This document shows, one piece after another, positions 32,031 through 49,715 of a DNA stretch of 49,715 bases. This DNA is from Escherichia phage JohannLBurckhardt. The stretch's first letter is position 1. Each line of letters starts with the position of its first letter. The notes under the pieces are model-generated. The model was given only the letters and a program-made list of their open reading frames with translations. It was not told the origin of the DNA and did not search any database. Location of the stretch: the sequence record MZ501085; one strand, 5' to 3'. The position numbers and the translations under genes are program-made.

Positions 32031-32031
32031 A

Positions 32032-33929: not shown

Positions 33930-33952
33930 CATTTAATTTCATGAGCTTACAA

Positions 33953-34272: not shown

Positions 34273-34274
34273 TC

Positions 34275-35686: not shown

Positions 35687-35689
35687 TTA

Positions 35690-37267
35690 TCACCCCATTA
35701 AAGCAGGATTCACAAACACGCGCCCATTCGTGAGGCATACGTAATTAAGATCTTCAAGGATTGGAAGCAAGTGATCCTCAATTCGCTTCATCACACCAGC
35801 CTGACCCAGGAACGGACGAACCTTGCGCACGGATTCGTAAATCGCCCGTGCAGTGATAGCGCCCTTATTGGCTTTTCCGAGCCTTGTTATCGTGTCGATA
35901 ATCTTGATCAACTCCGCATCCTGACCAGCATGACCGGAAGCATTTGCAGCGCTGATGTAGGTCTTGCTCAACTCCTGGAACATCAAGAGCGCCTCCTGCA
36001 TCGTCTCAACGTCAATCTCTCGTGACTTTGTGGCGGTTCCGTTAACATCCTGCCAGTTTCGGATCGTGTGAATAACGGATGCCAGGCGAATGACTTGTTT
36101 ATCCATTTTACCCAATGCGCCGCGTAGCATGGTGTGAGAATATTCTCCTCCGTCTGCAAGCTTTGGCTCCATTTCCTGGCGTGCAATGTTGAGCACCCGC
36201 ATAGCGGAGCGGCTAACCTTCAATGAAACGGATTGCTCCGTCATGATATTGTGGATCAGCTTGTAATAGTCCGCTTTAAGACCTGCATCAACTGGCGTGT
36301 AGGTTGTGTCTCCTTTGTCGTCAACAAACTTACGGCGGCCTAAGAATGATTCCTCTCGCACAAGCAAGAAACGTTCAGAAACACCGATACCACGAGCACC
36401 AGCCTCCATAATGCCGCTGATTGTTTCGTCCTGCGCAATCACAGCCATGCAACCTAGAGCCGTAAAGCTCATGTTGTTTTCTGCATTTGCACGGGCGATG
36501 GAAACGTGACCGCTATCCCAAGCCTTTAGCACCAATTCGCTGTTAGTCTTGCGCTCGCTATTGGCGTATGTCAGTCCGAGCAGTGAGTTGATACTTGTTG
36601 CCTCGTCCGAGATAACAGCAAAGTTACCCTGGCGAAAGTTGATTTTAGCCAAACCCTCTGGAGTGGTATCTGAAACAGGAAACACAACGTCGCACAGTTT
36701 AGCCAGCTTTTCCTCGTACTCCTCTTTCTCCTCGTAAAGCGCAGCGTACTCAGTGCCGGAGCGCTCGCTCTTTAATTCCTTTGCGATCCCGTTGAGTTTC
36801 GCCTGAATCTTTTTGCGCTCTTTCTTGCGTTGCTCGTTGATTCGCTCAACCTCTGCAACAATCGGAGCAATCGCCATTGAGTTGATCGCAGATTTACCAG
36901 TAGACGGCGGCTGGCTTGTAACAACGTATAGCGCCGTTGGCTGATCGGTTCCGTGGTATTCAACGGAGAATCTCCCGAGCATCGCGGCAGACACGCAGCC
37001 TACAAAGTGCATATAGGCAGATGAAACAGGGAATTGCACAGACTCCGCCAGGCTGCGAGACAACTTGCCTACAACGTCGCAATCGTTGCCGAGGGAAATA
37101 ACAGGGTATTTGTCGTTTCCGCTGTTAATGTCCTTCACGTCACCCCAAAAACCAGACGAGCGAGAGTATCCGTTTGCCTGGATTGCAACCTTAACGGCGC
37201 TCAAGCCTTGAGCCTCAGCCGTTGAAATGATTTGTTGTGGTGTCAGCGTGGATTGTTCAAAAAACAT
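35690..37267 (-). CDS. P-loop NTPase (putative replication/helicase-type protein)
   Basis: 525 aa; Walker A SQPPSTGKSA and Walker B-like VISDEAT; RBS AAGGAG; downstream of motif site n. Confidence 0.5.
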   Translation of the reverse strand: MFFEQSTLTPQQIISTAEAQGLSAVKVAIQANGYSRSSGFWGDVKDINSGNDKYPVISLGNDCDVVGKLSRSLAESVQFPVSSAYMHFVGCVSAAMLGRFSVEYHGTDQPTALYVVTSQPPSTGKSAINSMAIAPIVAEVERINEQRKKERKKIQAKLNGIAKELKSERSGTEYAALYEEKEEYEEKLAKLCDVVFPVSDTTPEGLAKINFRQGNFAVISDEATSINSLLGLTYANSERKTNSELVLKAWDSGHVSIARANAENNMSFTALGCMAVIAQDETISGIMEAGARGIGVSERFLLVREESFLGRRKFVDDKGDTTYTPVDAGLKADYYKLIHNIMTEQSVSLKVSRSAMRVLNIARQEMEPKLADGGEYSHTMLRGALGKMDKQVIRLASVIHTIRNWQDVNGTATKSREIDVETMQEALLMFQELSKTYISAANASGHAGQDAELIKIIDTITRLGKANKGAITARAIYESVRKVRPFLGQAGVMKRIEDHLLPILEDLNYVCLTNGRVFVNPALMG

Positions 37268-37295
37268 CTTAAAGTCTCCTTGTTGGTTGACCCGT

Positions 37296-37338
37296 ATTAT
37301 AGGTCAACCATCTTACAGCCTTTTAGCAATTCGTGCTA
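37296..37338 (-). promoter_or_regulatory. palindrome-type promoter element (site n)
   Basis: On - strand TAGCA-cgaat-TGCTA, 22 nt, TATAAT inside GGTTGACC/GGTCAACC inverted repeat; TAG is stop of upstream gene. Confidence 0.6.
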
Positions 37339-37581
37339 TTTTAAACGTTCAACTTTTGCTAATAATCTTCCGTCAACTATTGAGTGACACTCAAGCGTTT
37401 CAGGATCAAAATCAAGCGACTTATGGAAGGTGTGACCAATCAGCCACTTGTCGCCACGGTCACGTATAAGATAAACCTCCTCACCCTCAACCAGGCTTGA
37501 TGTTGTTCCGTACACGACGCGGAACCTGTTTTTGCGCATCGCGGCTGGTACGTGCTTTTGGTAGTCAACGCCTGTGATCAT
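37336..37581 (-). CDS. hypothetical protein
   Basis: 81 aa; ATGA overlap with upstream gene. Confidence 0.5.
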   Translation of the reverse strand: MITGVDYQKHVPAAMRKNRFRVVYGTTSSLVEGEEVYLIRDRGDKWLIGHTFHKSLDFDPETLECHSIVDGRLLAKVERLK

Positions 37582-37943
37582 GAATATTTAGCCTCAAAAA
37601 GATAAGAACCACCAGCAGAGAAACCAACCTCCTCCCGATACAGAGTGAAGCGGTCGCCGTCCTCGTCAAACACATAGCCAGCAACGCCGCCCAATACGCG
37701 CCCTTGTTCGATCTGGTAGCGCTTGCCAGCCTTGAACGTTTTCTTGTGCTTCATGCTATGGTCTACCCAGGTGCATTTTATTGTTTTGGTCTTGATCTCA
37801 CGGAAATCATTAAAATTTGCGTTCTCCCACTTTGCGCCTTTGGTTAACTCCTTAACCTGGAAGGAACCAGTTTCAAAGAATTGAACCTCGTCAACAATAC
37901 GACCTTTCATTAACTTGTTGTCAGAGTTGCGGATAACTTTCAT
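37578..37943 (-). CDS. hypothetical protein (MK.IR / AGK.Y small-protein family)
   Basis: 121 aa; RBS AAGGAG; contains FKAGKRYQIEQG segment shared with several + strand small proteins. Confidence 0.55.
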   Translation of the reverse strand: MKVIRNSDNKLMKGRIVDEVQFFETGSFQVKELTKGAKWENANFNDFREIKTKTIKCTWVDHSMKHKKTFKAGKRYQIEQGRVLGGVAGYVFDEDGDRFTLYREEVGFSAGGSYLFEAKYS

Positions 37944-37972
37944 GATTTGCTCCTTTCGTTTGATGTGGTTGC

Positions 37973-38015
37973 ATAATAGCGGATCTTATCGACCCGCTTT
38001 TAACAAAAAGTGCTA
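37973..38015 (-). promoter_or_regulatory. palindrome-type promoter element (site o)
   Basis: On - strand TAGCA-ctttt-TGTTA, 22 nt, TATTAT in AGCGG/CCGCT hairpin; leader CAAACGAAAGGAG. Confidence 0.6.
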
Positions 38016-38726
38016 TTTTGAGTTAGCCAGCCATACAGCAATAGCCAGGCCGCGAGGAGTGAGCGAGCGAATCAGTTTTGTTCGCGCTGATTTACCGCCT
38101 AATTTCTTCCAGCCTGGATTGTCATTCCCAACCGGATACACTGGCAAAGCCTCAGGCATCACAAAGCCGTTACCAGTCCAAAGGCAAGTTTGCTTATTGT
38201 AAGCGTCACTCGCTGGGATGATATCAGGAAAGGCAGGGTGAGCTTCATCCTTGATATGGATGTAGCCGCCATAGTCGCACGGATGGAATTTATGATCCGG
38301 CTTGCGCCATAGCGTTGACAGCTTGCCTACAGGGTTTTCGATCATGTACGGCACGCCGAAATGATCAGCAATGTCAGCCGCAATCTTGCAGGTGTTTGCC
38401 GCCTCAACCTGGAATTTCGGATTCAACTCAGCTTTGCGCTTCCAGTGGCGAGAGCCGGAGTTAGCCAGGTCTGTGCATGGCGGGAATGCCATAATGAAAT
38501 CAGGCTTGCCGTAAAATTCCATTTGCGCACGGTGGCGGAAATCGCTGTCAATCCATGCGTTAACATATTCGATGTTCGGATGCGTTACGCGCACTGATTG
38601 GTACGATCCGTGATCACCTTTATCGGCATTAAAGCAAATCACTTTGTAACCAGCTTTCGCCCACGGCAGAGCCGCATAGCCGGAGCCGTCGAACATTGAG
38701 AAAACCAGACCTTTGATGTTGTTCAT
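38013..38726 (-). CDS. putative DNA (cytosine-5)-methyltransferase
   Basis: 237 aa; motif order FSMFDGSG (motif I-like), PPCTD (PC motif IV-like), ENP (motif VI-like) with C5-MTase-like spacing; short for the family. Confidence 0.5.
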   Translation of the reverse strand: MNNIKGLVFSMFDGSGYAALPWAKAGYKVICFNADKGDHGSYQSVRVTHPNIEYVNAWIDSDFRHRAQMEFYGKPDFIMAFPPCTDLANSGSRHWKRKAELNPKFQVEAANTCKIAADIADHFGVPYMIENPVGKLSTLWRKPDHKFHPCDYGGYIHIKDEAHPAFPDIIPASDAYNKQTCLWTGNGFVMPEALPVYPVGNDNPGWKKLGGKSARTKLIRSLTPRGLAIAVWLANSK

Positions 38727-38736
38727 TTTTTAACCC

Positions 38737-39021
38737 TCAGAATGGGAAGCAACGCTTGCAAGCCGGATCGAATTCACAGCCGCAGTCATTTACAATCATG
38801 GTTGGATCGGCAAACATCGCTCCGCTTTCCATATCCATATCCATATCGCCAAGCGCATCATCCAGCGTGCGCAGTTTATAAGCAACCTCAAGCGCTGCCT
38901 CTTTATTCAGTCCAGCAGCCTCCGCTTCATGTAGGCGGGCAAAGAAACCATCTTGTACCACAATTTTCTCCTCTAAACTGGCGGCGCAATTGCCGCCTTT
39001 AAACCAATCAGGACTTATCAA
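38737..39021 (-). CDS. hypothetical protein (acidic, Cys-containing C-terminus)
   Basis: 94 aa; coupled to upstream gene. Confidence 0.5.
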   Translation of the reverse strand: MISPDWFKGGNCAASLEEKIVVQDGFFARLHEAEAAGLNKEAALEVAYKLRTLDDALGDMDMDMESGAMFADPTMIVNDCGCEFDPACKRCFPF

Positions 39022-39245
39022 GCTTTCCAGGTTTCGATATACATCGAATTTTCATCCAGGAAGTTAATCACGTCTTGCTTGCTGTACTGGCGCAGGGTGC
39101 AGCGCGGTGATGTTCCAACGGTGTAGCAGCCTTTACCCTCGGTGATGGTCACTTGCTTGATTTTCTCGCCTGGGATGTCGCACTTGATGATCACGCGATG
39201 GTGGCTATCAAGGGTTTTCATGATGTTTTCGGTTTTGAGTTTCAT
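39018..39245 (-). CDS. hypothetical protein
   Basis: 75 aa; RBS GAGGA; first gene after motif site p. Confidence 0.5.
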   Translation of the reverse strand: MKLKTENIMKTLDSHHRVIIKCDIPGEKIKQVTITEGKGCYTVGTSPRCTLRQYSKQDVINFLDENSMYIETWKA

Positions 39246-39276
39246 TCGTTTATCCTCGTTCGTTGTTGATGGCGCT

Positions 39277-39319
39277 ACTATAACGGGACGAAGCGCCGGA
39301 GTTTTAACAAAAAGTGCTG
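39277..39319 (-). promoter_or_regulatory. palindrome-type promoter element (site p)
   Basis: On - strand CAGCA-ctttt-TGTTA, 22 nt, TATAGT inside GGCGC/GCGCC inverted repeat; TGA stop of upstream gene abuts motif. Confidence 0.55.
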
Positions 39320-39586
39320 TCAGTTGTAGATAACACTTTTAATCTTCTTGATCTCGTCAACTAGCTCTTGTTCGTCGTGAATCATGGAGGGCGAGCACTC
39401 CCAACAAGCGGAGGGAAGTTTCTTGTTCTTGCCCTTAATCAGAAAGCCGCCCATTAACTCCCAATTGCAGATAAGGCGATCATCACGCATATCGTACAGG
39501 TTGAACAGGTTGCGACGCTCGCCACTAACGTAAATCTTCACCCCATTGTTGCGGCAGAATACGCGCAATTCTTTCGTCGCTCGCAT
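39320..39586 (-). CDS. hypothetical protein
   Basis: 88 aa; coupled. Confidence 0.5.
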   Translation of the reverse strand: MRATKELRVFCRNNGVKIYVSGERRNLFNLYDMRDDRLICNWELMGGFLIKGKNKKLPSACWECSPSMIHDEQELVDEIKKIKSVIYN

Positions 39587-39780
39587 TATTCACTCTCCAG
39601 TACAGTAACAGGTTCCAGGCGCTCCAGTACAACTTTAAAATCCGCAAAGAATGTCGGCCTACGTTCGGTTAGCTCGGTATAGGTGTCAATCGCTAGAGTT
39701 GCGCGATCACCTTCATAGCACACCACACGCTTTCCACCTGCGCGGCTGATTGCCACCACGCGATAGGTATTCTTGATCAT
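39586..39780 (-). CDS. hypothetical protein
   Basis: 64 aa; ATGA overlap. Confidence 0.5.
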   Translation of the reverse strand: MIKNTYRVVAISRAGGKRVVCYEGDRATLAIDTYTELTERRPTFFADFKVVLERLEPVTVLESE

Positions 39781-39980
39781 TAAATAACCTCCATAACAGT
39801 ATGCTCGTCACCAGCCAGTGACCAGAGAGTGTTAGTAAGTTGCTTCACTTTCCAGGTGAGGCCGGAGTGATAGCAGACCATTTCCTCAAGGTCGATTGTG
39901 ATCTCAATGCCTTTCTTGAAGATTCCAGGCGTCAGCTCTGGATTGCGGCGAATAACTTTAGCGTCTATCTGGTCTTGCAT
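39780..39980 (-). CDS. hypothetical protein
   Basis: 66 aa from ATG 39980 (RBS GAGGAA); longer track ORF start would lie inside the promoter element. Confidence 0.5.
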   Translation of the reverse strand: MQDQIDAKVIRRNPELTPGIFKKGIEITIDLEEMVCYHSGLTWKVKQLTNTLWSLAGDEHTVMEVI

Positions 39981-40012
39981 TTTTGATTCCTCAGTTTCGT
40001 TTTGTTGAGGCA

Positions 40013-40055
40013 ATGATACCGCATCGCATCTGACTGGTTTTAACAAAAAGTGCTA
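40013..40055 (-). promoter_or_regulatory. palindrome-type promoter element (site q)
   Basis: On - strand TAGCA-ctttt-TGTTA, 22 nt, TATCAT; leader CAACAAAACGAAACTGAGGAA. Confidence 0.6.
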
Positions 40056-40334
40056 TCACTTCATCATATGCAGATTGTTAGCGATAAACTTGACAACTTC
40101 ACGCAGTTGCTTTTCGTCAAAGATAGTCGCTGGCAATTCTTCTTTCAAATCCTGGTGCAGATAAACGTTTCCGTGCCAGGCGAGTTTGTCATGCTCGATG
40201 CGATAGCTACACATCCACTCACAATCGTTGTCAGCTTCCCAAATGCACAGAGCGGTGTAGTCGCCCAAATCCTCAACGGTTAACTCAATGCCGCGTTTCT
40301 TTGCCATGTTGAAAGTGGTCTTGCTGATGTTCAT
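40056..40334 (-). CDS. hypothetical protein
   Basis: 92 aa from ATG 40334 (RBS GAGGAAAA). Confidence 0.5.
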   Translation of the reverse strand: MNISKTTFNMAKKRGIELTVEDLGDYTALCIWEADNDCEWMCSYRIEHDKLAWHGNVYLHQDLKEELPATIFDEKQLREVVKFIANNLHMMK

Positions 40335-40365
40335 TTCGTTTTCCTCAGTTCGTTTCGTTGAATGC

Positions 40366-40409
40366 ATTATGACAAATCCTATCCGCTCTTTTTTTAGCAA
40401 AAAGTGCTA
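40366..40409 (-). promoter_or_regulatory. palindrome-type promoter element (site r)
   Basis: On - strand TAGCA-ctttt-TGCTA, 23 nt, CATAAT; leader TTCAACGAAACGAACTGAGGAA. Confidence 0.55.
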
Positions 40410-40424
40410 TTTAATCGGTAGTCA

Positions 40425-40525
40425 GTGATTTTGATGATTGCTTGACCACTTTTGCAATGATGTTTTTGATGTCCGTCAACTTTTGTGTGATTGTGATGAT
40501 TGTTGATGTTTTTTGATGTGATTTG
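40425..40525 (+). repeat. degenerate short tandem repeats (TGATG / TTTTGATG units)
   Basis: gattttgatgattg...caatgatgtttttgatg...gattgtgatgattgttgatgttttttgatgtgatttgaatg in AT-rich noncoding region. Confidence 0.5.
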
Positions 40526-40698
40526 AATGTGGGAATCAGCATGGCCTGGCGGTGTCGTTTTTGCGCTCTCGAAAACTCCGCCCTGTTATCTTCTGTTTGC
40601 ACTCGTTTCCTCTTGTTACCGAAAGTACGGTGGCGTAGTTTGTTCGTGTTTTTCGCGTAGCAGAAACAAAAAAAACTTTTAATTACCCTATAAACAAC

Positions 40699-40737
40699 TA
40701 ATAAAATCAATAGTTTATTTATATATATTATATTTGT
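40699..40737 (+). repeat. AT-rich conserved block, copy 2 (direct repeat with 21344..21384)
   Basis: TAATAAAATCAATAGTTTA identical 19-mer plus similar flanks. Confidence 0.7.
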
Positions 40738-40995
40738 TTTCACTACGTTATACTTGTTCCATATGGTATGGGGTGGTTATGGGATTTTATTATTGGTGGT
40801 ATTGGTTAATTTATAGGCATGTTCCGCTCAGGATGTGTGCGATTCATCATTTCGTTGTGGTTGCTTTGGGTGACATATACATATTTATTATGTCCTCCGA
40901 AAAAACTGTAACGGCTGTAACATGCAAAAAACAGAATTTATAATCATAAAAATCAACAACTTGCGATAAATTTTGTTTTTCGGCTCAAAAAAAAC

Positions 40996-41024
40996 TTGTG
41001 GAAACCGATTGTAACATGCATAAT
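40996..41024 (+). promoter_or_regulatory. candidate sigma70-like promoter for right-hand early operon
   Basis: TTGTGG - 17 nt - CATAAT; leader CACGAAACGAAC then GGAGG and ATG 41057. Confidence 0.4.
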
Positions 41025-41056
41025 GCACCACGAAACGAACAAGCGGAGGTAAAACT

Positions 41057-41482
41057 ATGTCAGATCAATCATTTGGCGATCAGTTGCGTGCAGCGGCGAG
41101 AATGTTGGCGAGTGGTGAGCGTGATGAGATTATCATGACCGACTACCAGTTACAGCAAGCGTCCGGCAGGGAGAAAATCAACCCAAGCCATATCCGTACA
41201 ACTATGGCGCGAGAGGTTCGCACCCTGGGAGCTATCAGCGTGAAGCGCATCACGGATCCGATTGGGTACGTTTGCACATTCAACCCTGACCCAAAAAAGC
41301 GAGCGATTGCCAGCGACGAGCTACCAGCAATCAAGGCGCGTGCGACTAACAAAGCACTGAAAGCGATTGCAGACGTGATGCCAAACCTCACAGACCTGGA
41401 GGGCGAGCAGTTGCAGGGTGCTATCATTGCGGTGCAGCGCTACCAGGATTTAATCAAGAAGCAAATCAACGAGGAGGTTTAA
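41057..41482 (+). CDS. hypothetical protein
   Basis: 141 aa; RBS GGAGG; first gene after AT-rich region. Confidence 0.55.
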   Translation: MSDQSFGDQLRAAARMLASGERDEIIMTDYQLQQASGREKINPSHIRTTMAREVRTLGAISVKRITDPIGYVCTFNPDPKKRAIASDELPAIKARATNKALKAIADVMPNLTDLEGEQLQGAIIAVQRYQDLIKKQINEEV

Positions 41483-41484
41483 TT

Positions 41485-41745
41485 ATGTGCAACGAGAAAA
41501 TCGATCAGCTTGTAGACGAAATCATTGAGGCGCACGACCGCGCCGGATTCAACTCTATCTTTATGGTATGCCCTGACGCTTTCGGCATTACAGAAAGCGA
41601 GCTTAAAGAGGCGGTTGAGCAGGTGGAGTCCGTACTCCGAACCGATAACTCTGGTGACGAAATCTTTTCAGCCTTGACTGCTTGCGATGGTGGCGGAGTG
41701 TTTACTCTTTCGCTTGTTAACGCAAACACGATCCTGACCATCTGA
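41485..41745 (+). CDS. hypothetical acidic protein
   Basis: 86 aa; strongly acidic. Confidence 0.5.
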   Translation: MCNEKIDQLVDEIIEAHDRAGFNSIFMVCPDAFGITESELKEAVEQVESVLRTDNSGDEIFSALTACDGGGVFTLSLVNANTILTI

Positions 41746-41753
41746 TTGGTAAA

Positions 41754-41796
41754 TAGCACTTTTTGCTAAAACAGCCCCGCGCGAGTGGGGCATAAT
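41754..41796 (+). promoter_or_regulatory. palindrome-type promoter element (site g)
   Basis: TAGCA-ctttt-TGCTA, 22 nt, CATAAT; leader CTCAACGAAACGAATTGAGGAG. Confidence 0.6.
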
Positions 41797-41829
41797 GCAC
41801 TCAACGAAACGAATTGAGGAGACTGCAAA

Positions 41830-41985
41830 ATGTTTACACTGATTACCTGGGAGCACGAAAACAGCGAGCCAGTATCCGTAACATACGATTGGCTGGCTCA
41901 GTGCTACAATATCGCCAAAAACGGTGGTTTCTACAAAGCGCAGATTGTTAACGAATTTGGGGTTGTTGAGTATGAGTTTCATTAA
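41830..41985 (+). CDS. small protein (51 aa)
   Basis: ATG 7 nt after GAGGAG, first ORF after site g; not in track (<60 aa). Confidence 0.4.
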   Translation: MFTLITWEHENSEPVSVTYDWLAQCYNIAKNGGFYKAQIVNEFGVVEYEFH

Positions 41986-42181
41986 TGCATGTGACGTCAA
42001 GCCTGGCGTTGTGTACCGCTCAAAATACACAGATCGGCTGTGGCGCTGGGATGGTGCAACTATGTGGACGAAAGGCGCGGGAGATGTGATTTGGCATGAA
42101 TCCGGCTGGCCTCACCCAACAATGACGCGCAAGGACATCGCTTATTATCTGGCAGTTGGCGAATTCGAGGAGGTTAAATAA
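41972..42181 (+). CDS. hypothetical protein
   Basis: 69 aa from ATG 41972, overlapping end of previous small ORF. Confidence 0.45.
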   Translation: MSFINACDVKPGVVYRSKYTDRLWRWDGATMWTKGAGDVIWHESGWPHPTMTRKDIAYYLAVGEFEEVK

Positions 42182-42369
42182 TGCTCAAGACGGTTCACCC
42201 TGACACGCACGGCGACGAAATGAGAATCTACGGGCGGCATGACAAGATCCACATTGACGGATGCTTTGACGGCGAGCGAATCGCCTGGCGTGGAATATAC
42301 ACGCATAAGCAAGCGCGTGAGATTGCAGAGAGACTTAACGACCTTGCAGACATTATGGAGGGCAAATAA
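42181..42369 (+). CDS. hypothetical protein
   Basis: 62 aa; TAATG overlap. Confidence 0.5.
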   Translation: MLKTVHPDTHGDEMRIYGRHDKIHIDGCFDGERIAWRGIYTHKQAREIAERLNDLADIMEGK

Positions 42370-42554
42370 TGATCAGATTCAACGTTGACTATCCAGGCTT
42401 TATTGCTGGCAAGACCTATCAAGCGAAATACGCAGCGCACCCATTCTACGGCTACCTTGCAATCAAGGTTGTGGACGAGGACGGCGATGCGCGTTACCTG
42501 GCGATTGAGTTGCTGGAGGACGGATCCATTGTTGAGGTGGATGATGAAGATTAA
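42369..42554 (+). CDS. hypothetical acidic protein (MK.IR / AGK.Y family)
   Basis: 61 aa; FIAGKTYQ motif; acidic C-terminus. Confidence 0.5.
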   Translation: MIRFNVDYPGFIAGKTYQAKYAAHPFYGYLAIKVVDEDGDARYLAIELLEDGSIVEVDDED

Positions 42555-42894
42555 CGCACAAGCACGCAACTACGCGCTAAAGCACGGGATTCACATCTAC
42601 GGACTGACCAACGAGCAGAGCCGCGCCTTGGTTTTCTACGATATCGCCAGCGGAACAAAGCTATGCACTTACAAGAGCTACAGCGATGATAACCCATTGC
42701 AGAAGTCGCTCAACTACAAGATGAAGCCGGAAACCTGGCAAGCGATGCCGGATGATATCCGCACGGCTCAGGGTGTGCAAAAGGCAATCGAGGCTATGGT
42801 TGCAACTGGCACGGCGCGACCGCTGGACGAGGACGAGCTAGCGGAGGCACGCAACAAGATCCTCAGTCGGTCAACTGGAGTTAAGATCATATGA
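42541..42894 (+). CDS. hypothetical protein
   Basis: 117 aa from ATGATG 42541 (RBS GAGGTGG); N-terminal extension in track overlaps previous gene. Confidence 0.5.
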   Translation: MMKINAQARNYALKHGIHIYGLTNEQSRALVFYDIASGTKLCTYKSYSDDNPLQKSLNYKMKPETWQAMPDDIRTAQGVQKAIEAMVATGTARPLDEDELAEARNKILSRSTGVKII

Positions 42895-42955
42895 GCAGTT
42901 GGCACAATGAGCACGTCATGCAATTCTACCGCCAAAGGATAAAGAAAATCCTCAA

Positions 42956-42998
42956 TAGCACGAATTGCTAAAACACCAGATCGGGGTTGCGCTATAGT
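42956..42998 (+). promoter_or_regulatory. palindrome-type promoter element (site h)
   Basis: TAGCA-cgaat-TGCTA, 22 nt, TATAGT inside GGGGT/ACCCC inverted repeat; leader ATCGAAACGAAAC. Confidence 0.6.
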
Positions 42999-43034
42999 AA
43001 CCCCATCGAAACGAAACACGCTGAGGAGCACAAA

Positions 43035-43202
43035 ATGAAATCTCGCAAATACCGCAACATCTTCAACAACCTGACATACTGGCTGGAGGACGGCGCTGTC
43101 ATGGTTAGCAACGGCGAGCAAACAAATAAATCGCTGTTAAGCGCAGAGGAGTTTTTCATTGCGGTAGGCCGTGACGTTCTGGTACTGATTGAGGGGGAAT
43201 AA
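43035..43202 (+). CDS. small protein (55 aa)
   Basis: ATG 43035 after GAGGAGCA; first ORF after site h. Confidence 0.45.
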   Translation: MKSRKYRNIFNNLTYWLEDGAVMVSNGEQTNKSLLSAEEFFIAVGRDVLVLIEGE

Positions 43203-43205
43203 TAC

Positions 43206-43448
43206 ATGCTGTCAATTCGAAACTGGTTTATGCGCTTCATCGGGAAAGAGGTTGAGGCTTTCGGCTACAACATTCCGGCAAACTTCAAGCGTGCCTGCCC
43301 TGGCAATGCCAGCGGGGTTTATTGGGAAATGCCAGACGGCACATACTGGTTCACGATAATTTCTGGAATGCCGATCCAGGTTAGTGAGCGCGACTATGAG
43401 CGCGGGACGTGGTTTAAAGCAATGCTTGAAGTAGGGGAGGAATTTTAA
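43206..43448 (+). CDS. hypothetical protein
   Basis: 80 aa. Confidence 0.5.
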   Translation: MLSIRNWFMRFIGKEVEAFGYNIPANFKRACPGNASGVYWEMPDGTYWFTIISGMPIQVSERDYERGTWFKAMLEVGEEF

Positions 43449-43984
43449 TGATCAAATTTGAGCTTTGGGGTTACACGTACCATCTGCGCGGCACTTACGG
43501 CGTTGCAATCGTTGACCTGGACGGCACGCTTTCTGACGGCACGCACCGATTGCACCTGCTACCAACAAAGGACTTGCACCTCACCGAAAGTTGGAGCGAG
43601 TTTAACAAGGCTGCTGTAAACGATAAGCCGATTCAGAGCACGATTGATGTTGTGCGTAACCTTTGGCGTGCTGGAATGGGCGTCGTTATCCTGACTGGTC
43701 GCAGTGACGAGGTGGAAACCGACACTATCCTTTGGCTCGACCGCCACAAGGTGAAATATGACTGGCTTATCATGCGCCGCGCAGAGGATAACCGCAAAGA
43801 CACCGTTATCAAAGAGGAGGTGTTGCGTGCAATCGGTCTGCATCATATTACGTGCGCCTTTGACGATTCGCCAAACGTGATCAGCCATTTTCGCAGCCTG
43901 GGAATCACAACCTATCAGGTGACGGAATACGACAAGCCGCACTCTCATTTACAGAGTCACGGCGTGGATGAATTAGATGGATAA
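43448..43984 (+). CDS. HAD-superfamily phosphatase (polynucleotide 3'-phosphatase/nucleotidase-like)
   Basis: 178 aa; motif I VDLDGTL (DxDGT), later ILTGR and FDD motifs. Confidence 0.6.
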   Translation: MIKFELWGYTYHLRGTYGVAIVDLDGTLSDGTHRLHLLPTKDLHLTESWSEFNKAAVNDKPIQSTIDVVRNLWRAGMGVVILTGRSDEVETDTILWLDRHKVKYDWLIMRRAEDNRKDTVIKEEVLRAIGLHHITCAFDDSPNVISHFRSLGITTYQVTEYDKPHSHLQSHGVDELDG

Positions 43985-44189
43985 GATCGTAACCTGGATT
44001 TTCGGATCGGTGATTACCGCTCTATCCGTCCTGCTGGTGCTCATAATTGGGGCGGCGGTATACATGGCAGCGAGCGACGATTACACCTGCGAGAAAACAG
44101 GCCGCCAGGTTCTTGTGATGATTCCGGCTGGTAAAGTAATGGTTCCTATCATGCAGGACGAAACTATTTGCAAGAGGGTTGAGAAATGA
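43977..44189 (+). CDS. small membrane protein
   Basis: 70 aa; N-terminal TM helix. Confidence 0.5.
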   Translation: MDKIVTWIFGSVITALSVLLVLIIGAAVYMAASDDYTCEKTGRQVLVMIPAGKVMVPIMQDETICKRVEK

Positions 44190-44401
44190 TTGTGACGCAC
44201 AACGTAGAGCAGAGCGAAAACACCGCGCAGGATATGATTGCCGGAATGACGCCAAAATCTCACAGAATGGTGCGAGTGTGGGGTTTTCAGGGCAATGTAA
44301 GCCAAACGCTCAAGGAAATTTTAGACCTGCCACAAGTTGATACAGCGCTTGTGGGGGTGCATACAAACGAATATGTTTCTTTCCACATTGTGACAAAGTG
44401 A
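44186..44401 (+). CDS. hypothetical protein
   Basis: 71 aa; ATGA overlap. Confidence 0.5.
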   Translation: MIVTHNVEQSENTAQDMIAGMTPKSHRMVRVWGFQGNVSQTLKEILDLPQVDTALVGVHTNEYVSFHIVTK

Positions 44402-44407
44402 GGACTC

Positions 44408-44617
44408 ATGATCTTGAATGTTGCCTTTGCCAATCCGAGAGGGTGCAATATTTACGGCTTCAAGGTTGGCGCAGCGGTTAACGCCAGGCGCGACGACAAA
44501 GGGAGGCTCATAGTAAAGGCTCCCAAAACTGGAGTTGATATGTGGATAAAGGAGAACGGCGTACGGCTATTTATCCGCTCAATGTCGGGGCAAACGCTAG
44601 CGACTTTCACAAAATAG
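44408..44617 (+). CDS. hypothetical protein
   Basis: 69 aa; stop TAG is first triplet of motif site i. Confidence 0.5.
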   Translation: MILNVAFANPRGCNIYGFKVGAAVNARRDDKGRLIVKAPKTGVDMWIKENGVRLFIRSMSGQTLATFTK

Positions 44618-44657
44618 CACGAATTGCTAAAACGCGCTCCGCCAGGGGCGCTACAAT
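44615..44657 (+). promoter_or_regulatory. palindrome-type promoter element (site i)
   Basis: TAGCA-cgaat-TGCTA, 22 nt, TACAAT; leader resembles that of the 21665 promoter (TACAATGCAC..ATACCAAC). Confidence 0.6.
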
Positions 44658-44689
44658 GCACCCATACCAACCAACGAGAGGAAAGCAAG

Positions 44690-44923
44690 ATGCAAGCAAA
44701 GATTAAAACCATTGGCGGATACACCGGAATGAAAAACGTCAAGCTGCCGCTGACACTAAAGGCGGTTTCCAGTGGTTACGGCACGGTTGATGTGAGCATG
44801 GCGGAACTGATTCACCACGGCTATGATTTTGCAGCAGGTCAGGCAGACGAAATCCCGGACTGCGAACCAAACGCTCAAACACTAACTTTCATCATCGGAT
44901 CAGAGGCGGAGATTGTAGAATGA
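44690..44923 (+). CDS. hypothetical protein
   Basis: 77 aa from ATG 44690 (RBS GAGAGGAAA). Confidence 0.5.
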   Translation: MQAKIKTIGGYTGMKNVKLPLTLKAVSSGYGTVDVSMAELIHHGYDFAAGQADEIPDCEPNAQTLTFIIGSEAEIVE

Positions 44924-45150
44924 AATATCAGATTTTTAAGGCAGTAGACAAGCTGGACGGCGATGTATCACTTTTCGCTTTTGATGAGCAAGAAAACTAC
45001 ACAGTCATTTATCACTCTGACTACATGCTTGGAAGGCTGGTTGAGGAGATTAAATCCGGCAAAGGTTGCCACTGGTCAGCGGATTCAATCAGCTACCCGC
45101 GCCGCAATGATATGGTTAATCCGGTTCTGCTTTGCGAGATTGAAGCATGA
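44920..45150 (+). CDS. hypothetical protein (MK..I family-like)
   Basis: 76 aa; ATGA overlap. Confidence 0.5.
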   Translation: MKYQIFKAVDKLDGDVSLFAFDEQENYTVIYHSDYMLGRLVEEIKSGKGCHWSADSISYPRRNDMVNPVLLCEIEA

Positions 45151-45338
45151 AGTGCATACGGTCAACATACGATATATTCAAGGCTGGTGAAAGTTACCAG
45201 CTAATTGAGAAAGGCCAGGCTGGGCGGTTCACGGTGTACGAATACACCGACGCGCAAGGTTGGGTTTACACGTTCGGACTTGACGAGAACGGCGAGAACG
45301 AAACAGACGGCAATTTCATTAAATTTACAAAGGAGTAA
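45147..45338 (+). CDS. hypothetical protein (MK.IR / AGK.Y family)
   Basis: 63 aa; MKCIRSTYDIFKAGESYQLIE. Confidence 0.5.
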   Translation: MKCIRSTYDIFKAGESYQLIEKGQAGRFTVYEYTDAQGWVYTFGLDENGENETDGNFIKFTKE

Positions 45339-45342
45339 CAAG

Positions 45343-45573
45343 ATGATTGAGATTCTATTCGAGGGCAACTCTAAGCCATTCAACGGCGTACAGATCCACA
45401 AAGACGCAACGCACGCGGTAGCGGGTCGCAATTTCGGTACTTACTTTAAGCTCAATGGGGAATGGTATTTTACTGTTTTCACCTGCCACGCGCTTAAAGC
45501 AACGGTTGCGTCTCATGACTTTGATATCCGCGATCACATAAGAGACGACGCAAAAATCACAGCGCTTAAATAG
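45343..45573 (+). CDS. hypothetical protein
   Basis: 76 aa from ATG 45343 (RBS AAGGAG); stop TAG is first triplet of motif site j. Confidence 0.5.
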   Translation: MIEILFEGNSKPFNGVQIHKDATHAVAGRNFGTYFKLNGEWYFTVFTCHALKATVASHDFDIRDHIRDDAKITALK

Positions 45574-45614
45574 CACTTTTTGCTAAAGACTTTCCGCGAG
45601 GCCATTGATATAGT
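45571..45614 (+). promoter_or_regulatory. palindrome-type promoter element (site j)
   Basis: TAGCA-ctttt-TGCTA, 23 nt, TATAGT inside GAGGCCA/TGGCCTC inverted repeat. Confidence 0.6.
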
Positions 45615-45652
45615 GGCCTCATTGAAAGCAACCACGCAAACAGGAGATAAAA

Positions 45653-45811
45653 ATGCGTAACTTTGAGAAAATCCGCACTAACAAAGACCGTCGCGCCGCT
45701 GGTGAGATTGTGGACTCACACCGTCGCCGCAAGAAAACCCAAAAGCGCGGGAGTGCGGAAAAGCGCATGGATTGGGATCAGCTTCAAACTAACTACAAGG
45801 CAGGTCGATAA
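45653..45811 (+). CDS. small basic (Arg/Lys-rich) protein (52 aa)
   Basis: ATG after CAGGAG; stop TAA overlaps the kinase ATG; the longer track ORF 45663..45905 is in another frame and overlaps the kinase gene. Confidence 0.45.
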   Translation: MRNFEKIRTNKDRRAAGEIVDSHRRRKKTQKRGSAEKRMDWDQLQTNYKAGR

Positions 45812-46380
45812 TGAAAAAGGTTATTATCCTCAACGCGCCGCCAGGTGCTGGCAAAGATACGGTTGGCAACCTGATTTGCAAGCACGCGCCGCAATACATT
45901 GTTAAGCGCTCGTTCAAAGAGCCGATGTTTAAGATAGCAAAAGCCATGCTGGGCGATTATCGTTTCAGCCTGTTTATGCAAGCGTATGACGACAGGGAGC
46001 GGAAGGAAAGAGCACAACCATTCCTGAATGGTAAATCTCCGCGCCAGTTTATGATCTGGATTAGCGAGGACGTGATAAAACCTCAGTTTGGGGATCAGTA
46101 TTTTGGCGCAGTAATGGCTGAGGCAGTGCGCGATAGCCATGCCCCGATTGTCATTACTGACGGCGGTTTCCCCGATGAAGTTAAGCCGCTGGTCAGCGCT
46201 GGCATTCAGGTAAATATTTGCCGCCTACATCGAGACGGCTACACGTTCGCCGGAGATAGCCGAGACTATCTCAACCTTGGGGGCTACCATCACCGAATCG
46301 TGACGCGGGATTATATTATGGTGCATGGTGATCCAATGCACACGGTAGACCAGATTTGCGAGGATATACTAAGTGATTAG
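45811..46380 (+). CDS. P-loop kinase (dNMP kinase / polynucleotide kinase-like)
   Basis: 189 aa; N-terminal Walker A LNAPPGAGKDTVG. Confidence 0.55.
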   Translation: MKKVIILNAPPGAGKDTVGNLICKHAPQYIVKRSFKEPMFKIAKAMLGDYRFSLFMQAYDDRERKERAQPFLNGKSPRQFMIWISEDVIKPQFGDQYFGAVMAEAVRDSHAPIVITDGGFPDEVKPLVSAGIQVNICRLHRDGYTFAGDSRDYLNLGGYHHRIVTRDYIMVHGDPMHTVDQICEDILSD

Positions 46381-46476
46381 CACACCGAACGATCCAAAAG
46401 AGCCGTTTGACTTCCACAAGGCCGCCGTTATCGGCCTTACAATCCTAACTGTCATTTACACTGTACGAGGTATTTT

Positions 46477-46674
46477 ATGGCTGTTAACACACTAAAGCGA
46501 ATTGGCGTTATCATGCTAATTATCGGAGGGTCATTACTAACAGAGCCAGGTTTTGCAAACGCGGCTGGAAGTATGGCGCTGTTAATCGGCGGTCTTATTG
46601 GCGGCTACATGGACGGCGTAAAGGCTGGACGGCGTGAGGCGTTCGGCGGCGAAGATAAAAATCCGATCAAATAG
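46477..46674 (+). CDS. small membrane protein
   Basis: 65 aa; Gly-rich hydrophobic segments; stop TAG is first triplet of site k. Confidence 0.5.
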   Translation: MAVNTLKRIGVIMLIIGGSLLTEPGFANAAGSMALLIGGLIGGYMDGVKAGRREAFGGEDKNPIK

Positions 46675-46714
46675 CACGAATTGCTAAAACTTCCGCGAGG
46701 GCATTTGATAAAGT
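46672..46714 (+). promoter_or_regulatory. palindrome-type promoter element (site k)
   Basis: TAGCA-cgaat-TGCTA, 22 nt, TAAAGT in imperfect inverted repeat. Confidence 0.6.
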
Positions 46715-46755
46715 GTCCTCATTGAAGTAAAGCAACCAATCAAGGAGATAACGAA

Positions 46756-47034
46756 ATGGCTACTATCCGCAAACACCTGGTAAACGCATTCGAGAACGTT
46801 GGCGAGAGCTACGGCTGGGATGATGGACTAAAAACACCGTACACGGCACGCCGTCAAGGTTTCAAAACACTGCGCGAGTGGGCGCGTTGCATGGCGGCTA
46901 ACTACATGCCGGAGAACTGGCAACTCATGCCTGACACTCTGCGCGAAATGATCGAAGAAGCACAGGCGGCGGGTGTGCCACTCACTCAGCATGATTTTGA
47001 CGCGTTCGCAGAGGAGGAGATTTCATGCTGGTGA
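46756..47034 (+). CDS. hypothetical protein
   Basis: 92 aa; RBS AAGGAG. Confidence 0.5.
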   Translation: MATIRKHLVNAFENVGESYGWDDGLKTPYTARRQGFKTLREWARCMAANYMPENWQLMPDTLREMIEEAQAAGVPLTQHDFDAFAEEEISCW

Positions 47035-47219
47035 AAATCCGCACTGATTATGAGGACTCGCCGTGGATAGCGGCGGGTAAGATTTACGAGGCGGTATTGG
47101 TCAAAACAGGCCGCTACGCAGGAATGTATAAGTTTATTGGGGAGTTAGGCTCCCCGTGCTACACAAGGCTTGAGCGTTCAATTCACATCGGCGGGAAAGA
47201 TTGGGAGATTGTAGAATGA
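47025..47219 (+). CDS. hypothetical protein (MK.IR / AGK.Y family)
   Basis: 64 aa; IAAGKIYEA motif. Confidence 0.5.
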   Translation: MLVKIRTDYEDSPWIAAGKIYEAVLVKTGRYAGMYKFIGELGSPCYTRLERSIHIGGKDWEIVE

Positions 47220-47653
47220 AATATTATGTACGCCCTACTGTAGATGGTGAAAACTTTACTGCTGGCAAGCTCTACGAGATCCAGCATGTTTTCGGCGGAG
47301 GTCGCGTTGTAGTGCTCAACGATGCAAAAGAGGAAATCATTGTGCGGTGCGATGGTGTTGTGTCGGCTCGCCTGGATTGGCGCGGGAAGTTTGATCGCGT
47401 GAACATCCCAAGCGCTCAAGAGGCGATGGAGCAAGCGCTCAAAACTGCGGAGTGGACAATTAGCAAGATCGGCTCCATGAACATAAGCGACGGCAAAATC
47501 TACGCAAGCGCATCGCCTCGCAACGAGTACGCCGAAGTGCTGGAACAGCTACGCGAAATTCTGCGCGTGCCAGAGGGCGAGAATATCCTGACTCATGCGA
47601 AAGTTGTTCGCGTGCTGGCTGATGGGTTGATCAACCTCCAGAAAACGAAATAG
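47216..47653 (+). CDS. hypothetical protein (MK.IR / AGK.Y family N-terminus)
   Basis: 145 aa from ATG 47216 (ATGA overlap); FTAGKLYEI motif; stop TAG starts site l. Confidence 0.5.
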   Translation: MKYYVRPTVDGENFTAGKLYEIQHVFGGGRVVVLNDAKEEIIVRCDGVVSARLDWRGKFDRVNIPSAQEAMEQALKTAEWTISKIGSMNISDGKIYASASPRNEYAEVLEQLREILRVPEGENILTHAKVVRVLADGLINLQKTK

Positions 47654-47693
47654 CACTTTTTGCTAAAACTCCGATGGGGTAGGCTGGTATAGT
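47651..47693 (+). promoter_or_regulatory. palindrome-type promoter element (site l)
   Basis: TAGCA-ctttt-TGCTA, 22 nt, TATAGT inside GGGGTA/TACCCC inverted repeat; leader ATCGAAACGAAAC. Confidence 0.6.
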
Positions 47694-47725
47694 TACCCCA
47701 TCGAAACGAAACGGAGACACCAAAA

Positions 47726-47938
47726 ATGAAAATTCGCATTACCAACGTACACAACCGCAAAACCCCAGAGGAATTAACCCTCGAGGAGTGCGGATTCAAG
47801 GTTGGCGACGTGGTAGAAATCGACGGTCACTTTAATGATGGGTCTTACTGCGTGATTGCTATCAGAAACACTGATTACATCTTTAAGGGTGATAACGTTA
47901 GCGTAGGCAAAGACGAGTGCGAGGTTGTAGAAGAATGA
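47726..47938 (+). CDS. hypothetical acidic protein (MK.IR family-like)
   Basis: 70 aa; MKIRITNVHN N-terminus. Confidence 0.5.
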   Translation: MKIRITNVHNRKTPEELTLEECGFKVGDVVEIDGHFNDGSYCVIAIRNTDYIFKGDNVSVGKDECEVVEE

Positions 47939-48171
47939 TCACGATTAACCTTTCAGACGAGCAAGCGCGTGAATTGCTGAAAGCTACCGGATGGGGCGAC
48001 ATGATGCCCCGCCACCTTGAGCAAGAGATTTTCCGCCAGCTTGAGAATAAGCTGACACCGCCAGGAACCGAACAGGCTAACCTGGCGGCATGGCGAGCAG
48101 AGGTTGGTTACACTGCAAAGGCTGTCGAGGACTGGAAACGCAAACACGAAACGATGGAGGGATTTGAATGA
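47935..48171 (+). CDS. hypothetical protein
   Basis: 78 aa from ATG 47935 (ATGA overlap). Confidence 0.5.
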   Translation: MITINLSDEQARELLKATGWGDMMPRHLEQEIFRQLENKLTPPGTEQANLAAWRAEVGYTAKAVEDWKRKHETMEGFE

Positions 48172-48512
48172 TTTTTGTACACACTTACAAGATCGGAACC
48201 AACGAGAACAAGAAAGAGCGCCGCGCTCTTTGGGATGCTGAGGAGCAAGCGCTGGCGCAGCAGCGAGTTTTAGGTGGTGTCGTTCAGGCGTTTGAATCTA
48301 TTGAAAACATTGAAACCGAGTACGCAGAGCGAGAGCACATTAAAGAGCTTGTTATTGACGAGGTGGCTTGTTTGATTGATGATCTGACAACCGACGCGCC
48401 AGGCTCTCCACGAAACTATGAGCCAGGTTCGGCGGAGTGGGATAGCTGGAAGGTGAAAACGCTTAATAACCTCCGCAATATCCTTGATGGAAAATTTAAC
48501 GAAATTCGATAG
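48168..48512 (+). CDS. hypothetical protein
   Basis: 114 aa; ATGA overlap. Confidence 0.5.
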   Translation: MIFVHTYKIGTNENKKERRALWDAEEQALAQQRVLGGVVQAFESIENIETEYAEREHIKELVIDEVACLIDDLTTDAPGSPRNYEPGSAEWDSWKVKTLNNLRNILDGKFNEIR

Positions 48513-48568
48513 TGTTTAAAGCGCCTCAGAGCGATTCTAAGAGGCGCAAAAATTGGAGGTATGATTGC

Positions 48569-48697
48569 ATGGATAACTACGAAAAACCGTCTCAGTGGTG
48601 CGCACGCAAGCAGGAGGAAGCGCTTGAGCACGGCGACCATGAATCAGCTTTAGACTATTTCCAGATGTTCCAACTTTGGCAGAGCAGGGGGCTATAA
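48569..48697 (+). CDS. small protein (42 aa)
   Basis: ATG 48569, GGAGG 9 nt upstream; preceded by hairpin GCGCCTC...GAGGCGC. Confidence 0.4.
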   Translation: MDNYEKPSQWCARKQEEALEHGDHESALDYFQMFQLWQSRGL

Positions 48698-48698
48698 A

Positions 48699-48929
48699 AT
48701 GTTCGGATTGAACGAGGCAGAATTCAACATCGTCAAGCGTGCGGCAAAAGATTGCGTAAACGATATCGCTGATCGCATTGAGCAGAAGGATGAAAAATAT
48801 GATCGCATAGCTGCGGGTATTATCTGCAAACACTATCAGCCAGTTAGCACCCTCTTGACCAAAACGCAATTTATTTGGCTAGCCGGATATCTGCGCGGGC
48901 GCTGGGGAAAGAATTTTGACCGCGAATGA
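48699..48929 (+). CDS. hypothetical protein
   Basis: 76 aa. Confidence 0.5.
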   Translation: MFGLNEAEFNIVKRAAKDCVNDIADRIEQKDEKYDRIAAGIICKHYQPVSTLLTKTQFIWLAGYLRGRWGKNFDRE

Positions 48930-49020
48930 TTGACGTCACGGCTCTGATTGGTTAACCTAAGCCCCGTGAACATAAGAACGGCCTTTTAGCCGAACGAGTA
49001 GCGCGGAGCTACACAACAAC

Positions 49021-49066
49021 GGCGCTATGCTGGTGTATAACCGTAAGACGTAGCGCCTTTTTTTTA
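49021..49066 (+). terminator. long-loop hairpin with 9-T tract (terminator or structured RNA 3' end)
   Basis: GGCGCTA...(23-nt loop)...TAGCGCC followed by TTTTTTTTT; preceded by small hairpin GTAGC-gcgga-GCTAC. Confidence 0.5.
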
Positions 49067-49078
49067 CAGGAGAAAGCA

Positions 49079-49246
49079 ATGAAACGATATCCAGAAGAAA
49101 CAGCCAAAGTGACCATCATCGTAGAGCGAAACGGCGTTAAGACTCGCTACAAGAAACGATTCAAGAAAGGCGAGGCGATGTTAGGCCGAATCTCTGACTT
49201 CATGATCAAGATCCAAGAGGATAAGCCAGATGAAGTGGAAGGTTAA
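49079..49246 (+). CDS. small basic protein (55 aa)
   Basis: ATG after ACAGGAGAAAGCA, a 20-nt initiation region identical to that of ssb; not in track. Confidence 0.4.
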   Translation: MKRYPEETAKVTIIVERNGVKTRYKKRFKKGEAMLGRISDFMIKIQEDKPDEVEG

Positions 49247-49415
49247 GCTGACCATCCGGCGAATGGGGCGACAATGCCGCTCCTGCAAGCAAGTTTTTGA
49301 ATGCGAGGTTTCAGCCTCAAACGAGGTAGAGGCGGCGCAGTTTGCAAAAGAGCTTTCTGGCGCAGATCCAGAAACACATAAATTTTCAATCGACTATTTA
49401 AGGAGCTTATCATGA
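49230..49415 (+). CDS. hypothetical protein (Cys-containing, possible zinc-ribbon)
   Basis: 61 aa; CRSCKQVFEC; overlaps previous ORF by about 17 nt. Confidence 0.45.
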   Translation: MKWKVKLTIRRMGRQCRSCKQVFECEVSASNEVEAAQFAKELSGADPETHKFSIDYLRSLS

Positions 49416-49645: not shown

Positions 49646-49649
49646 CCGA

Positions 49650-49675
49650 AGCCCCGCGTTTGCGGGGTTTTTTTG
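49650..49675 (+). terminator. rho-independent terminator
   Basis: CCCCGC-gttt-GCGGGG followed by 7 T; then TTATAAT and the SD for terS at window end. Confidence 0.85.
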
Positions 49676-49715
49676 TGCCTGTTATAATTGGCCTCCAACA
49701 AGAGGAGGATTAACC

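Follow-up and report, generated by a model that had tools for sequence, protein, structure and literature searches.

Predicted promoter cassettes with nested stem-loops in a T1-like Escherichia phage

The repeat and its cassette

The window analysed here, the whole stretch of 49,715 bp, is the complete genome of Escherichia phage JohannLBurckhardt, a T1-like siphovirus (Drexlerviridae, Tempevirinae, Henuseptimavirus). Escherichia phage IsaakIselin is colinear with it from terS on, with 90-95% identity, and Henu7, Klebsiella phage Samwise, Enterobacter phage AS5 and BubbaBully are also close to it. T1-like phages are widespread in laboratory and therapy use; to our knowledge their transcription has hardly been studied.

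A search of the window for ATAGCACNNNTTGNTAAAA, allowing up to three mismatches, gave 24 matches of which 22 are convincing. Twenty of these 22 repeat copies are co-oriented with the downstream gene. The repeat usually begins at the stop codon of a co-directional upstream gene: the TAG within its ATAGCAC motif is the stop of terL, hyp35, hyp72, hyp75, hyp79 and hyp82. It corresponds to the published 21-nt direct repeat aaATAGCACnnnTTGnTAAAA of phages TLS, T1, Rtp and Rogue1, whose role was left open, with a stoperator, an enhancer site or an UP element being suggested (PMC11447400). The two have in common the consensus, the orientation with transcription, the distance of ~76 nt to start codons and the spacer types AAA, TTT and GAA. 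The earlier study treats the repeat alone: the fixed -10, the +1 and the nested hairpin are not part of its description, and two hairpins adjacent to repeats are given simply as terminators T57 and T62. The central trinucleotide of the repeat comes in the discrete types GAA, TTT and AAA, about half of the copies having G/T-A-A and about half T-T-T. The repeat (e.g. 42955-42973) also holds an imperfect palindrome, TAGCA-N5-TGCTA, centred near -43, which is broken in the common TTGTTA variant.

The -10-like hexamers singled out in the first-pass annotation are part of a cassette of ~76 nt, found in 22 copies and opening with ATAGCACnnnTTGnTAAAA. The sites at 42955 and 47650 have a common layout that consists of ATAGCAC-nnn-TTGCTAAAAC, 18 variable nt, TATAGT, one further nucleotide, ACCCCATCGAAACGAAAC, a Shine-Dalgarno sequence and ATG. 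In the first of them (42955-43037, plus strand) the repeat lies at 42955-42973, TATAGT at 42993-42998, the predicted +1 A at 43005 and the ATG at 43035. The corresponding positions in the second (47650-47728, plus strand) are 47650-47668, 47688-47693, 47700 (again predicted) and 47726.

Counted from the A of ATAGCAC (offset 0), the repeat extends over offsets 0-18 (19 nt), or -50 to -32 relative to the predicted start. Eighteen variable nt separate it from an extended -10, after which comes a discriminator of 6 nt. The logo of 242 unique modules, collected by an IMG/VR scan and from the genomes of five relatives, has G at offset 36 (-14) in 86%, C at offset 49 in 81% and A at offset 50 in 83% (-1 and +1). 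The -10 hexamer, at offsets 38-43, has T at its first position in 72% and at its third in 83%, while the frequency of its A2 and T6 is preset, both being required by the module filter. An A-rich leader of 25 nt (CAaCGAAACGAA) then leads to the Shine-Dalgarno sequence and the ATG, the start codon lying at offset 75-76 in most of the 242 modules. The leader segment CAaCGAAACGAA (offsets 50-62, e.g. 43005-43017) is conserved across cassettes and phages, A-rich and nearly U-free, and it may be an initial-transcribed or translation-enhancing sequence.

The hexamers are best explained as the -10 elements of a fixed-length promoter cassette that is typical of T1-like phages. The A at offset 50 would be the +1 and the G at offset 36 the -14 G of the extended -10, the promoter activity of the cassette being predicted from its sequence. 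A -35 hexamer at 16-18 nt from the -10 is absent from the cassettes, though the -10 and TG motifs are present. The TTGnTA motif at -40 to -35 lies 22 nt ahead of the -10 and is thus not a standard -35. TTGCTA was rejected as a normal -35 on account of its constant 22-nt spacing to the -10 and the lack of a -10 at 17 nt downstream. Because of this non-standard spacing, a scan for consensus sigma-70 promoters missed every cassette. The freely variable stretches of the cassette are the spacer and the discriminator only, and the best explanation of their content is that both are used to encode a GC-rich stem-loop of 5-10 bp.

Stem-loops in two registers

Over the 36 nt that follow the repeat, the minimum free energy (MFE) averages -10.3 kcal/mol at the 22 sites, against -5.3 in dinucleotide shuffles (standard deviation of the mean 0.44). 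A value of -10 kcal/mol or lower is reached at 13 of the 22 sites, where 1.4 are expected and the maximum in any of 500 shuffles is six; among random 36-mers of the window the proportion is 6.7%. In 157 related modules it amounts to 72%, against 5% in shuffles and 0% in downstream control segments of the same loci. The six inverted repeats first reported at motif sites are all present, their coordinates being off by 1-5 nt. They had been described as lying in or beside the hexamer. The association holds, but the loose placement does not: hairpin centres cluster in two discrete registers, at offsets 29.5 (class A) and 37.5 (class B), with loops of 4-16 nt. In class A both arms are in the spacer, the last pair often takes the first base of the -10, and the hairpin ends 11-12 nt ahead of +1. 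Class B has its 5' arm at -24 to -16 and its 3' arm at -9 to -1. Its loop includes the TG motif together with the first half of the -10, and its 3' arm consists of the last three -10 bases and the discriminator, ending most commonly at offset 49 (-1).

Both sites of common layout carry class B hairpins on the plus strand. The one at 42979-43007 has the core GGGGTT (42983-42988) / AACCCC (42999-43004), and that at 47672-47703 pairs CGATGGGGTA (47672-47681) with TACCCCATCG (47694-47703) over 10 bp, with an MFE of -19.4. Three more class B hairpins belong to plus-strand cassettes. Cassette 45570-45655 (repeat 45570-45588; TATAGT 45609-45614) has GAGGCCA at 45598-45604 and TGGCCTC at 45614-45620, and its relatives have AAGGCCA/TGGCCTT. 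Within 46690-46727, cassette 46671-46758 (repeat 46671-46689; TAAAGT 46709-46714) encodes GAGGGCA/TGTCCTC with one G.U pair, a stem whose family variants are GAGGACA/TGTCCTC, GAGTGCA/TGCACTC and AAGGGCA/TGCCCTT. Cassette 22724-22803 starts with the repeat variant ACAGCACAAATAGCTAAAC (22724-22742) and has TATAAT at 22761-22766 and ATGGAGG/CCTCCAT inside 22746-22781, where relatives have CGGGGTG/CACCCCG and GATGCGTG/CACGCATC. On the minus strand, class B hairpins are found at 37284-37310 (GGTTGACC/GGTCAACC) in cassette 37259-37339 (repeat 37321-37339; TATAAT 37296-37301) and at 39271-39297 (GGCGCT/AGCGCC) in cassette 39243-39320 (repeat 39302-39320; TATAGT 39277-39282). A weakened one at 40007-40030 lies in cassette 39978-40056 (minus strand; repeat 40038-40056), where a single G-to-T difference from the relatives (GAGGCGATG to GATGCGATG) changes the fold from -13.7 to -7.1 kcal/mol.

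Class A is represented on the plus strand by the hairpins at 44634-44651, GCGCTCC gcca GGGGCGC with one U.G pair (cassette 44614-44698; repeat 44614-44632; TACAAT 44652-44657), at 41774-41791, GCCCCGC gcga GTGGGGC with a GNRA loop (cassette 41753-41832; repeat 41753-41771; CATAAT 41791-41796), and at 32051-32070, TGCCCGGC gaaa GTCGGGCA, which includes TGCCCG/CGGGCA (cassette 32031-32109; repeat 32031-32049; CATAAT 32069-32074). On the minus strand GCGGGTC gataa GATCCGC, with one G.U pair, occupies 37979-37997 (cassette 37940-38016; repeat 37998-38016; TATTAT 37973-37978). The plus-strand cassette 32364-32460 (repeat 32364-32382; TAGTAT 32402-32407) has GCTGAT/ATCAGC inside 32391-32419, a hairpin that is absent from the more distant L045 and L022. 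This cassette, hairpin included, sits within the annotated hyp41 frame (32298-32543), and one frame runs through its repeat without a stop (I-A-R-I-A-K). There are two readings: hyp41 is over-annotated, or the cassette is an internal promoter that serves the phosphoesterase gene at 32641.

Eight sites have no stable hairpin or only a weak one: 6366 (-), 16189 (+), 20199 (-), 26784 (+), 28340 (+), 30832 (+), 40410 (-) and the weakened 40056 (-). The repeat copy 6348-6366 is antisense within the head-gene block and has no stable hairpin; it is kept in Henu7, IsaakIselin and AS5, without an obvious downstream gene. The atypical copy 16189-16207 lies 15 nt ahead of the ATG of the J-like tail gene, too close to accommodate a -10 or a hairpin. 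Cassette 20116-20199, whose IsaakIselin counterpart is GCCCCgcaaatGGGGC, has only a weak repeat of 5 bp, and the hairpin of cassette 30832-30928 is degenerate, relatives having CCCGCttcgGCGGG-TTTTGTATTAT or GGCGCaaaggaatGCGCC at the same place. The copy 26784-26802, antisense at the junction of primase and lateral tail fibre, has no hairpin in the usual place. It overlaps the ribosome-binding region of the tail-fibre gene on the other strand, adjoins a minus-strand terminator (26834-26860, CCCCGCttcgGCGGGG and a T-run), and its conservation extends to distant relatives. Possible roles are that of an antisense promoter and that of a protein-binding site independent of orientation.

The proposal that conserved structure with varying sequence reflects selection for a hairpin gains support from comparison with related genomes, where compensatory changes are found. 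Sites were taken as orthologous where the genes on both sides are conserved, and their stems persist with different sequences. The window has GGTTGACC/GGTCAACC at site 37339 and relatives TGTTGCCG/CGGCAACA; GGGGTT/AACCCC at 42955 corresponds to GGGTGTG/CACACCC, GCGCTCC/GGGGCGC at 44614 to ACGGGGT/ACCCCGT in AS5, and GCGGGTC/GATCCGC at 38016 to GCCGGAT/ATCCGGC and GCCAGG/CCTGGC. The loops vary freely at these sites while the stems stay.

Covariation was quantified in two in-register alignments. The percentages of cells paired are 79% in the ungapped alignment of class B (54 modules), against 36-46% with the partner slid, and 89% in class A (40 modules), against 27-42%, figures that are inflated since the alignments were picked by predicted fold register. 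The covariation score of class B is 0.50, against 0.21 in shuffles, none of 500 of which reaches it, a significance that is optimistic because the sites are phylogenetically related; class A scores 0.51 against 0.20, and slid controls of the two alignments 0.05-0.19. Up to six pair types occur per position in class B. The unselected MFE statistics and the orthologue comparisons are independent of the choice of register. Compensatory double changes together with many pair types per position argue for continued selection for pairing. The hairpins are nevertheless dispensable at some sites, being weakened at 40056 and lost at 30832 and 20199, where relatives keep stems, and good folds are less frequent among the cassettes of the TLS and Rtp fragments.

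The RNA that carries the stem-loop

The hairpin had been proposed to act either in RNA or in DNA around the promoter. Of these options the first is favoured by an asymmetry of mismatches, by GNRA loops and by dependence on an upstream gene, and the second is disfavoured. When the stems were re-derived with an algorithm that scores all mismatches alike, isolated in-stem mismatches on the sense strand comprised 26 G.T and 2 A.C. Clustering to 80 stem families leaves 20 and 2 (p ~1e-4, optimistic given the phylogenetic relation of the sites), and the asymmetry tracks the direction of transcription on both genome strands. Among the 42 four-nucleotide loops of class A, 28 are GNRA and three UNCG. 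Since a function in duplex or cruciform DNA predicts equal numbers of G.T and A.C, mismatches and loop types favour a stem-loop selected in sense-strand RNA. The whole window matched no Rfam family at the gathering threshold.

A hairpin is present in 156 of 196 modules (80%) with an upstream ORF and in 13 of 38 without, an upstream ORF having at least 40 codons and ending at the repeat, so that some modules in the second group simply come after a short ORF or a wider gap. The hairpin is missing, in the window and in all relatives, from three promoters at the head of transcription units. The first, the helicase promoter (cassette 28340-28418, plus strand), is divergent from the regulator gene and has no co-directional upstream gene. 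The second (cassette 40330-40410, minus strand) is the first of the leftward early operon and adjoins a non-coding region of ~650 bp. The third, near 41000, is repeat-free (TTGTGG-17-CATAAT). As the hairpin ends at or before -1 of the predicted start, it is absent from the transcript of its own cassette and must consequently form in RNA that comes from upstream. It would form only in transcripts arriving from the upstream gene, ~20 nt past the stop codon, a distance that presumably places its start just beyond the footprint of the terminating ribosome.

The ~650-bp non-coding region (40411-41056), partly very AT-rich, separates the divergent early operons. It has many short repeats of the TGATG/TTGATG kind at 40420-40530 and an AT-rich block at 40670-40760. 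IsaakIselin annotates two small genes in the counterpart of this region, which are absent from the window. The region is a candidate replication origin or control region.

Possible roles and related systems

Stem-loops that soon follow a stop codon, with a GC-rich stem and a GNRA or UUCG loop, resemble intrinsic terminators, and a minority of the copies are full ones. Cassette 2102-2164 (plus strand; repeat 2102-2120), between terL and portal, has a terminator-like hairpin of 13 bp (2129-2158) followed by a T-rich run containing TATTAT. In cassette 27820-27903 (minus strand; repeat 27885-27903; -10 TATCAT), which comes after the regulator gene, ATCGCGTA/TACGCGAT (27846-27881) and then TTTTTTT form a canonical intrinsic terminator wrapped round the -10. 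Full terminators are also found in relatives of 30832 (CCCGCttcgGCGGG-TTTTGTATTAT) and in TLS, whose T57 and T62 directly follow DR10 and DR12. In all these cassettes the -10 lies inside or before the T-run. By contrast, ~90% of the hairpins have no U-tract and are followed by the -10 hexamer or by the A-rich leader. Of the 8 nt that come next to the stem, at least five are T in 13% of class A and at least four in 7% of class B, with a class B mean of 1.0, and only one cassette hairpin passes a terminator scan of 30000-49715. Ordinary intrinsic terminators are therefore rejected as the general explanation, 2102 and 27903 being exceptions. Most hairpins are not canonical terminators and efficient intrinsic termination is not expected of them, which favours a graded role on upstream transcripts.

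A comparable arrangement is known from the PeSL (promoter-early stem-loop) cassettes of the T4-like phages RB49, phi1, PST and nt-1 (Arbiol et al. 2010, PMC2839356; Comeau et al. 2014, PMC4122927). These have the order stop codon, AT-rich region, promoter, Shine-Dalgarno and ATG; one of their stem-loops reduced the expression of a reporter as a strong terminator would, and gene shuffling is mediated by the cassettes (PMC2839356, PMC4122927). The cassettes of the window are likewise repeated intergenic units that span the upstream stop codon, promoter, Shine-Dalgarno and ATG. Their stem-loop, too, varies in sequence, includes G-T pairs and lies mostly between -35 and -10 or over the -10, and they are dense in regions of small early genes whose function is unknown; their coincidence with borders of gene replacements is partial. 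They differ from PeSL in their host phage, of an unrelated siphovirus family with genomes of ~50 kb, in having the 19-nt repeat and an extended -10 instead of a -35 hexamer, and in their fixed length, with only two registers and no poly-G/poly-C stems. Promoter activity is here predicted, and terminator or attenuator activity proposed.

The literature searched, to which the 2004 T1 genome paper did not belong, contains no description of the hairpin part of the T1-family repeat. The combination of promoter and stem-loop, known in T4-like phages, has thus apparently not yet been reported for the T1 family. REP elements of E. coli operons are, like the hairpins of the window, stable intercistronic stem-loops without U-tract that can stop 3' exonucleases. 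Their sequence is conserved and they are not embedded in promoters, whereas the hairpins described here vary freely in sequence and take their position from promoter elements.

We consider it probable that the hairpins are PeSL analogues with a graded action on upstream transcripts, as attenuator, as 3'-end cap against exonucleases, or as both. The hairpin would attenuate read-through or cap the 3' end of the upstream message, and each small early gene would then depend mainly on its own promoter. The literature searched yielded no transcript-end data for any T1-like phage.

The hairpin might instead serve the downstream gene in read-through RNA, where it sits directly 5' of a leader common with the primary transcript. 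It could block RNase E scanning in the 5'-to-3' direction or, once the RNA has been processed within the A/U-rich repeat, decay that depends on the 5' end; it could also keep the upstream coding sequence from pairing with the ribosome-binding site. Such a role likewise predicts that an upstream gene is required and agrees with the missing U-tract of most hairpins. The class B stem, moreover, ends exactly at -1, which gives read-through and primary RNAs the same single-stranded leader. This coincidence with +1 is not general, as class A ends 11-12 nt before it; some hairpins are complete terminators, and a motif of the RNase E type was not identified. A service to the downstream gene seems unlikely, though it is the main alternative.

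It is rather improbable that repeat, hairpin and promoter form one insulation device in which the upstream RNA is terminated at -1, where the next transcript starts, or trimmed there to a 3' end capped by the hairpin, without a U-tract. A host or phage factor on the 19-nt repeat, for instance a Cro-like regulator, would possibly help. If true, the early regions would be a string of monocistronic units under common control, with a promoter-coupled termination mechanism independent of U-tracts.

The minus-strand gene 27887-28327 (146 aa) is annotated in relatives as a transcriptional regulator or as lambda-repressor-like; its matches to Cro/YdaS HTH domains are weak, below the Pfam cut-offs. It is divergent from the helicase cassette and ends inside the repeat copy of the 27903 cassette. 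Its product is a candidate for binding the 19-nt repeat.

The hairpins could also have no current function, being inherited remnants of terminators or of recombination hot spots spread by duplication and recombination of the cassettes, as in PeSL shuffling. The same cassette types precede unrelated genes in different phages, some stems are decaying, and the left borders of genome-specific segments are often inside cassettes. In a per-genome comparison cassettes, which make up ~6% of the early region, contain ~10 of the 29 left borders of non-aligned segments, such as those at 30856, 40057, 41811, 44696 and 47726; right borders rarely lie in them. Gene shuffling mediated by cassettes is only partly supported. 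That the stems are mere remnants is nonetheless very unlikely: they are kept while loops vary freely, and orthologous sites have compensatory double changes, with many pair types per position.

Directly after the 44614 cassette lies a small gene (44696-44918) that has no counterpart in IsaakIselin, where the next conserved gene follows at once. It looks like a gene insertion or replacement adjacent to the cassette.

Least of all do we expect the inverted repeat to act in DNA, as a cruciform or non-template-strand hairpin round the -10 that tunes melting or supercoiling sensitivity or is recognised as are the hairpin promoters of phage N4 or the single-strand promoters of conjugative plasmids. 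The repeat is indeed tied to promoter coordinates in two fixed registers, class B yields a GC-rich discriminator, and G.T, the best tolerated mismatch in DNA hairpins too, would also fit a hairpin in the displaced single-stranded sense strand; yet the ratio of G.T to A.C where equality is predicted, the enrichment of GNRA and UNCG loops, the poor extrusion of 5-8 bp stems with loops of 4-16 nt and the absence of the hairpin exactly where no upstream transcript arrives, at promoters otherwise alike, speak against it. The N4-type hairpin promoter has a 5-7-bp stem, a 3-nt loop, a fixed distance from +1 and a phage-encoded RNA polymerase. The loops found here are longer, no RNA polymerase gene is annotated in the relatives, and the strand asymmetry points to RNA; a cruciform or an N4-like promoter is thus disfavoured.

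In this model, which is concrete enough for testing, a T1-family repeat whose role was left open forms the upstream portion of a predicted extended -10 promoter cassette with fixed geometry. The cassette encloses an RNA hairpin on which purifying and compensatory selection is clear. For annotation and engineering it matters that standard promoter and terminator predictors miss nearly all elements of the cassette. Cassettes of the PeSL type would have arisen independently in a second, unrelated phage family, which suggests a general way of fitting a promoter and a terminator-like function into the ~75 nt that separate small genes.
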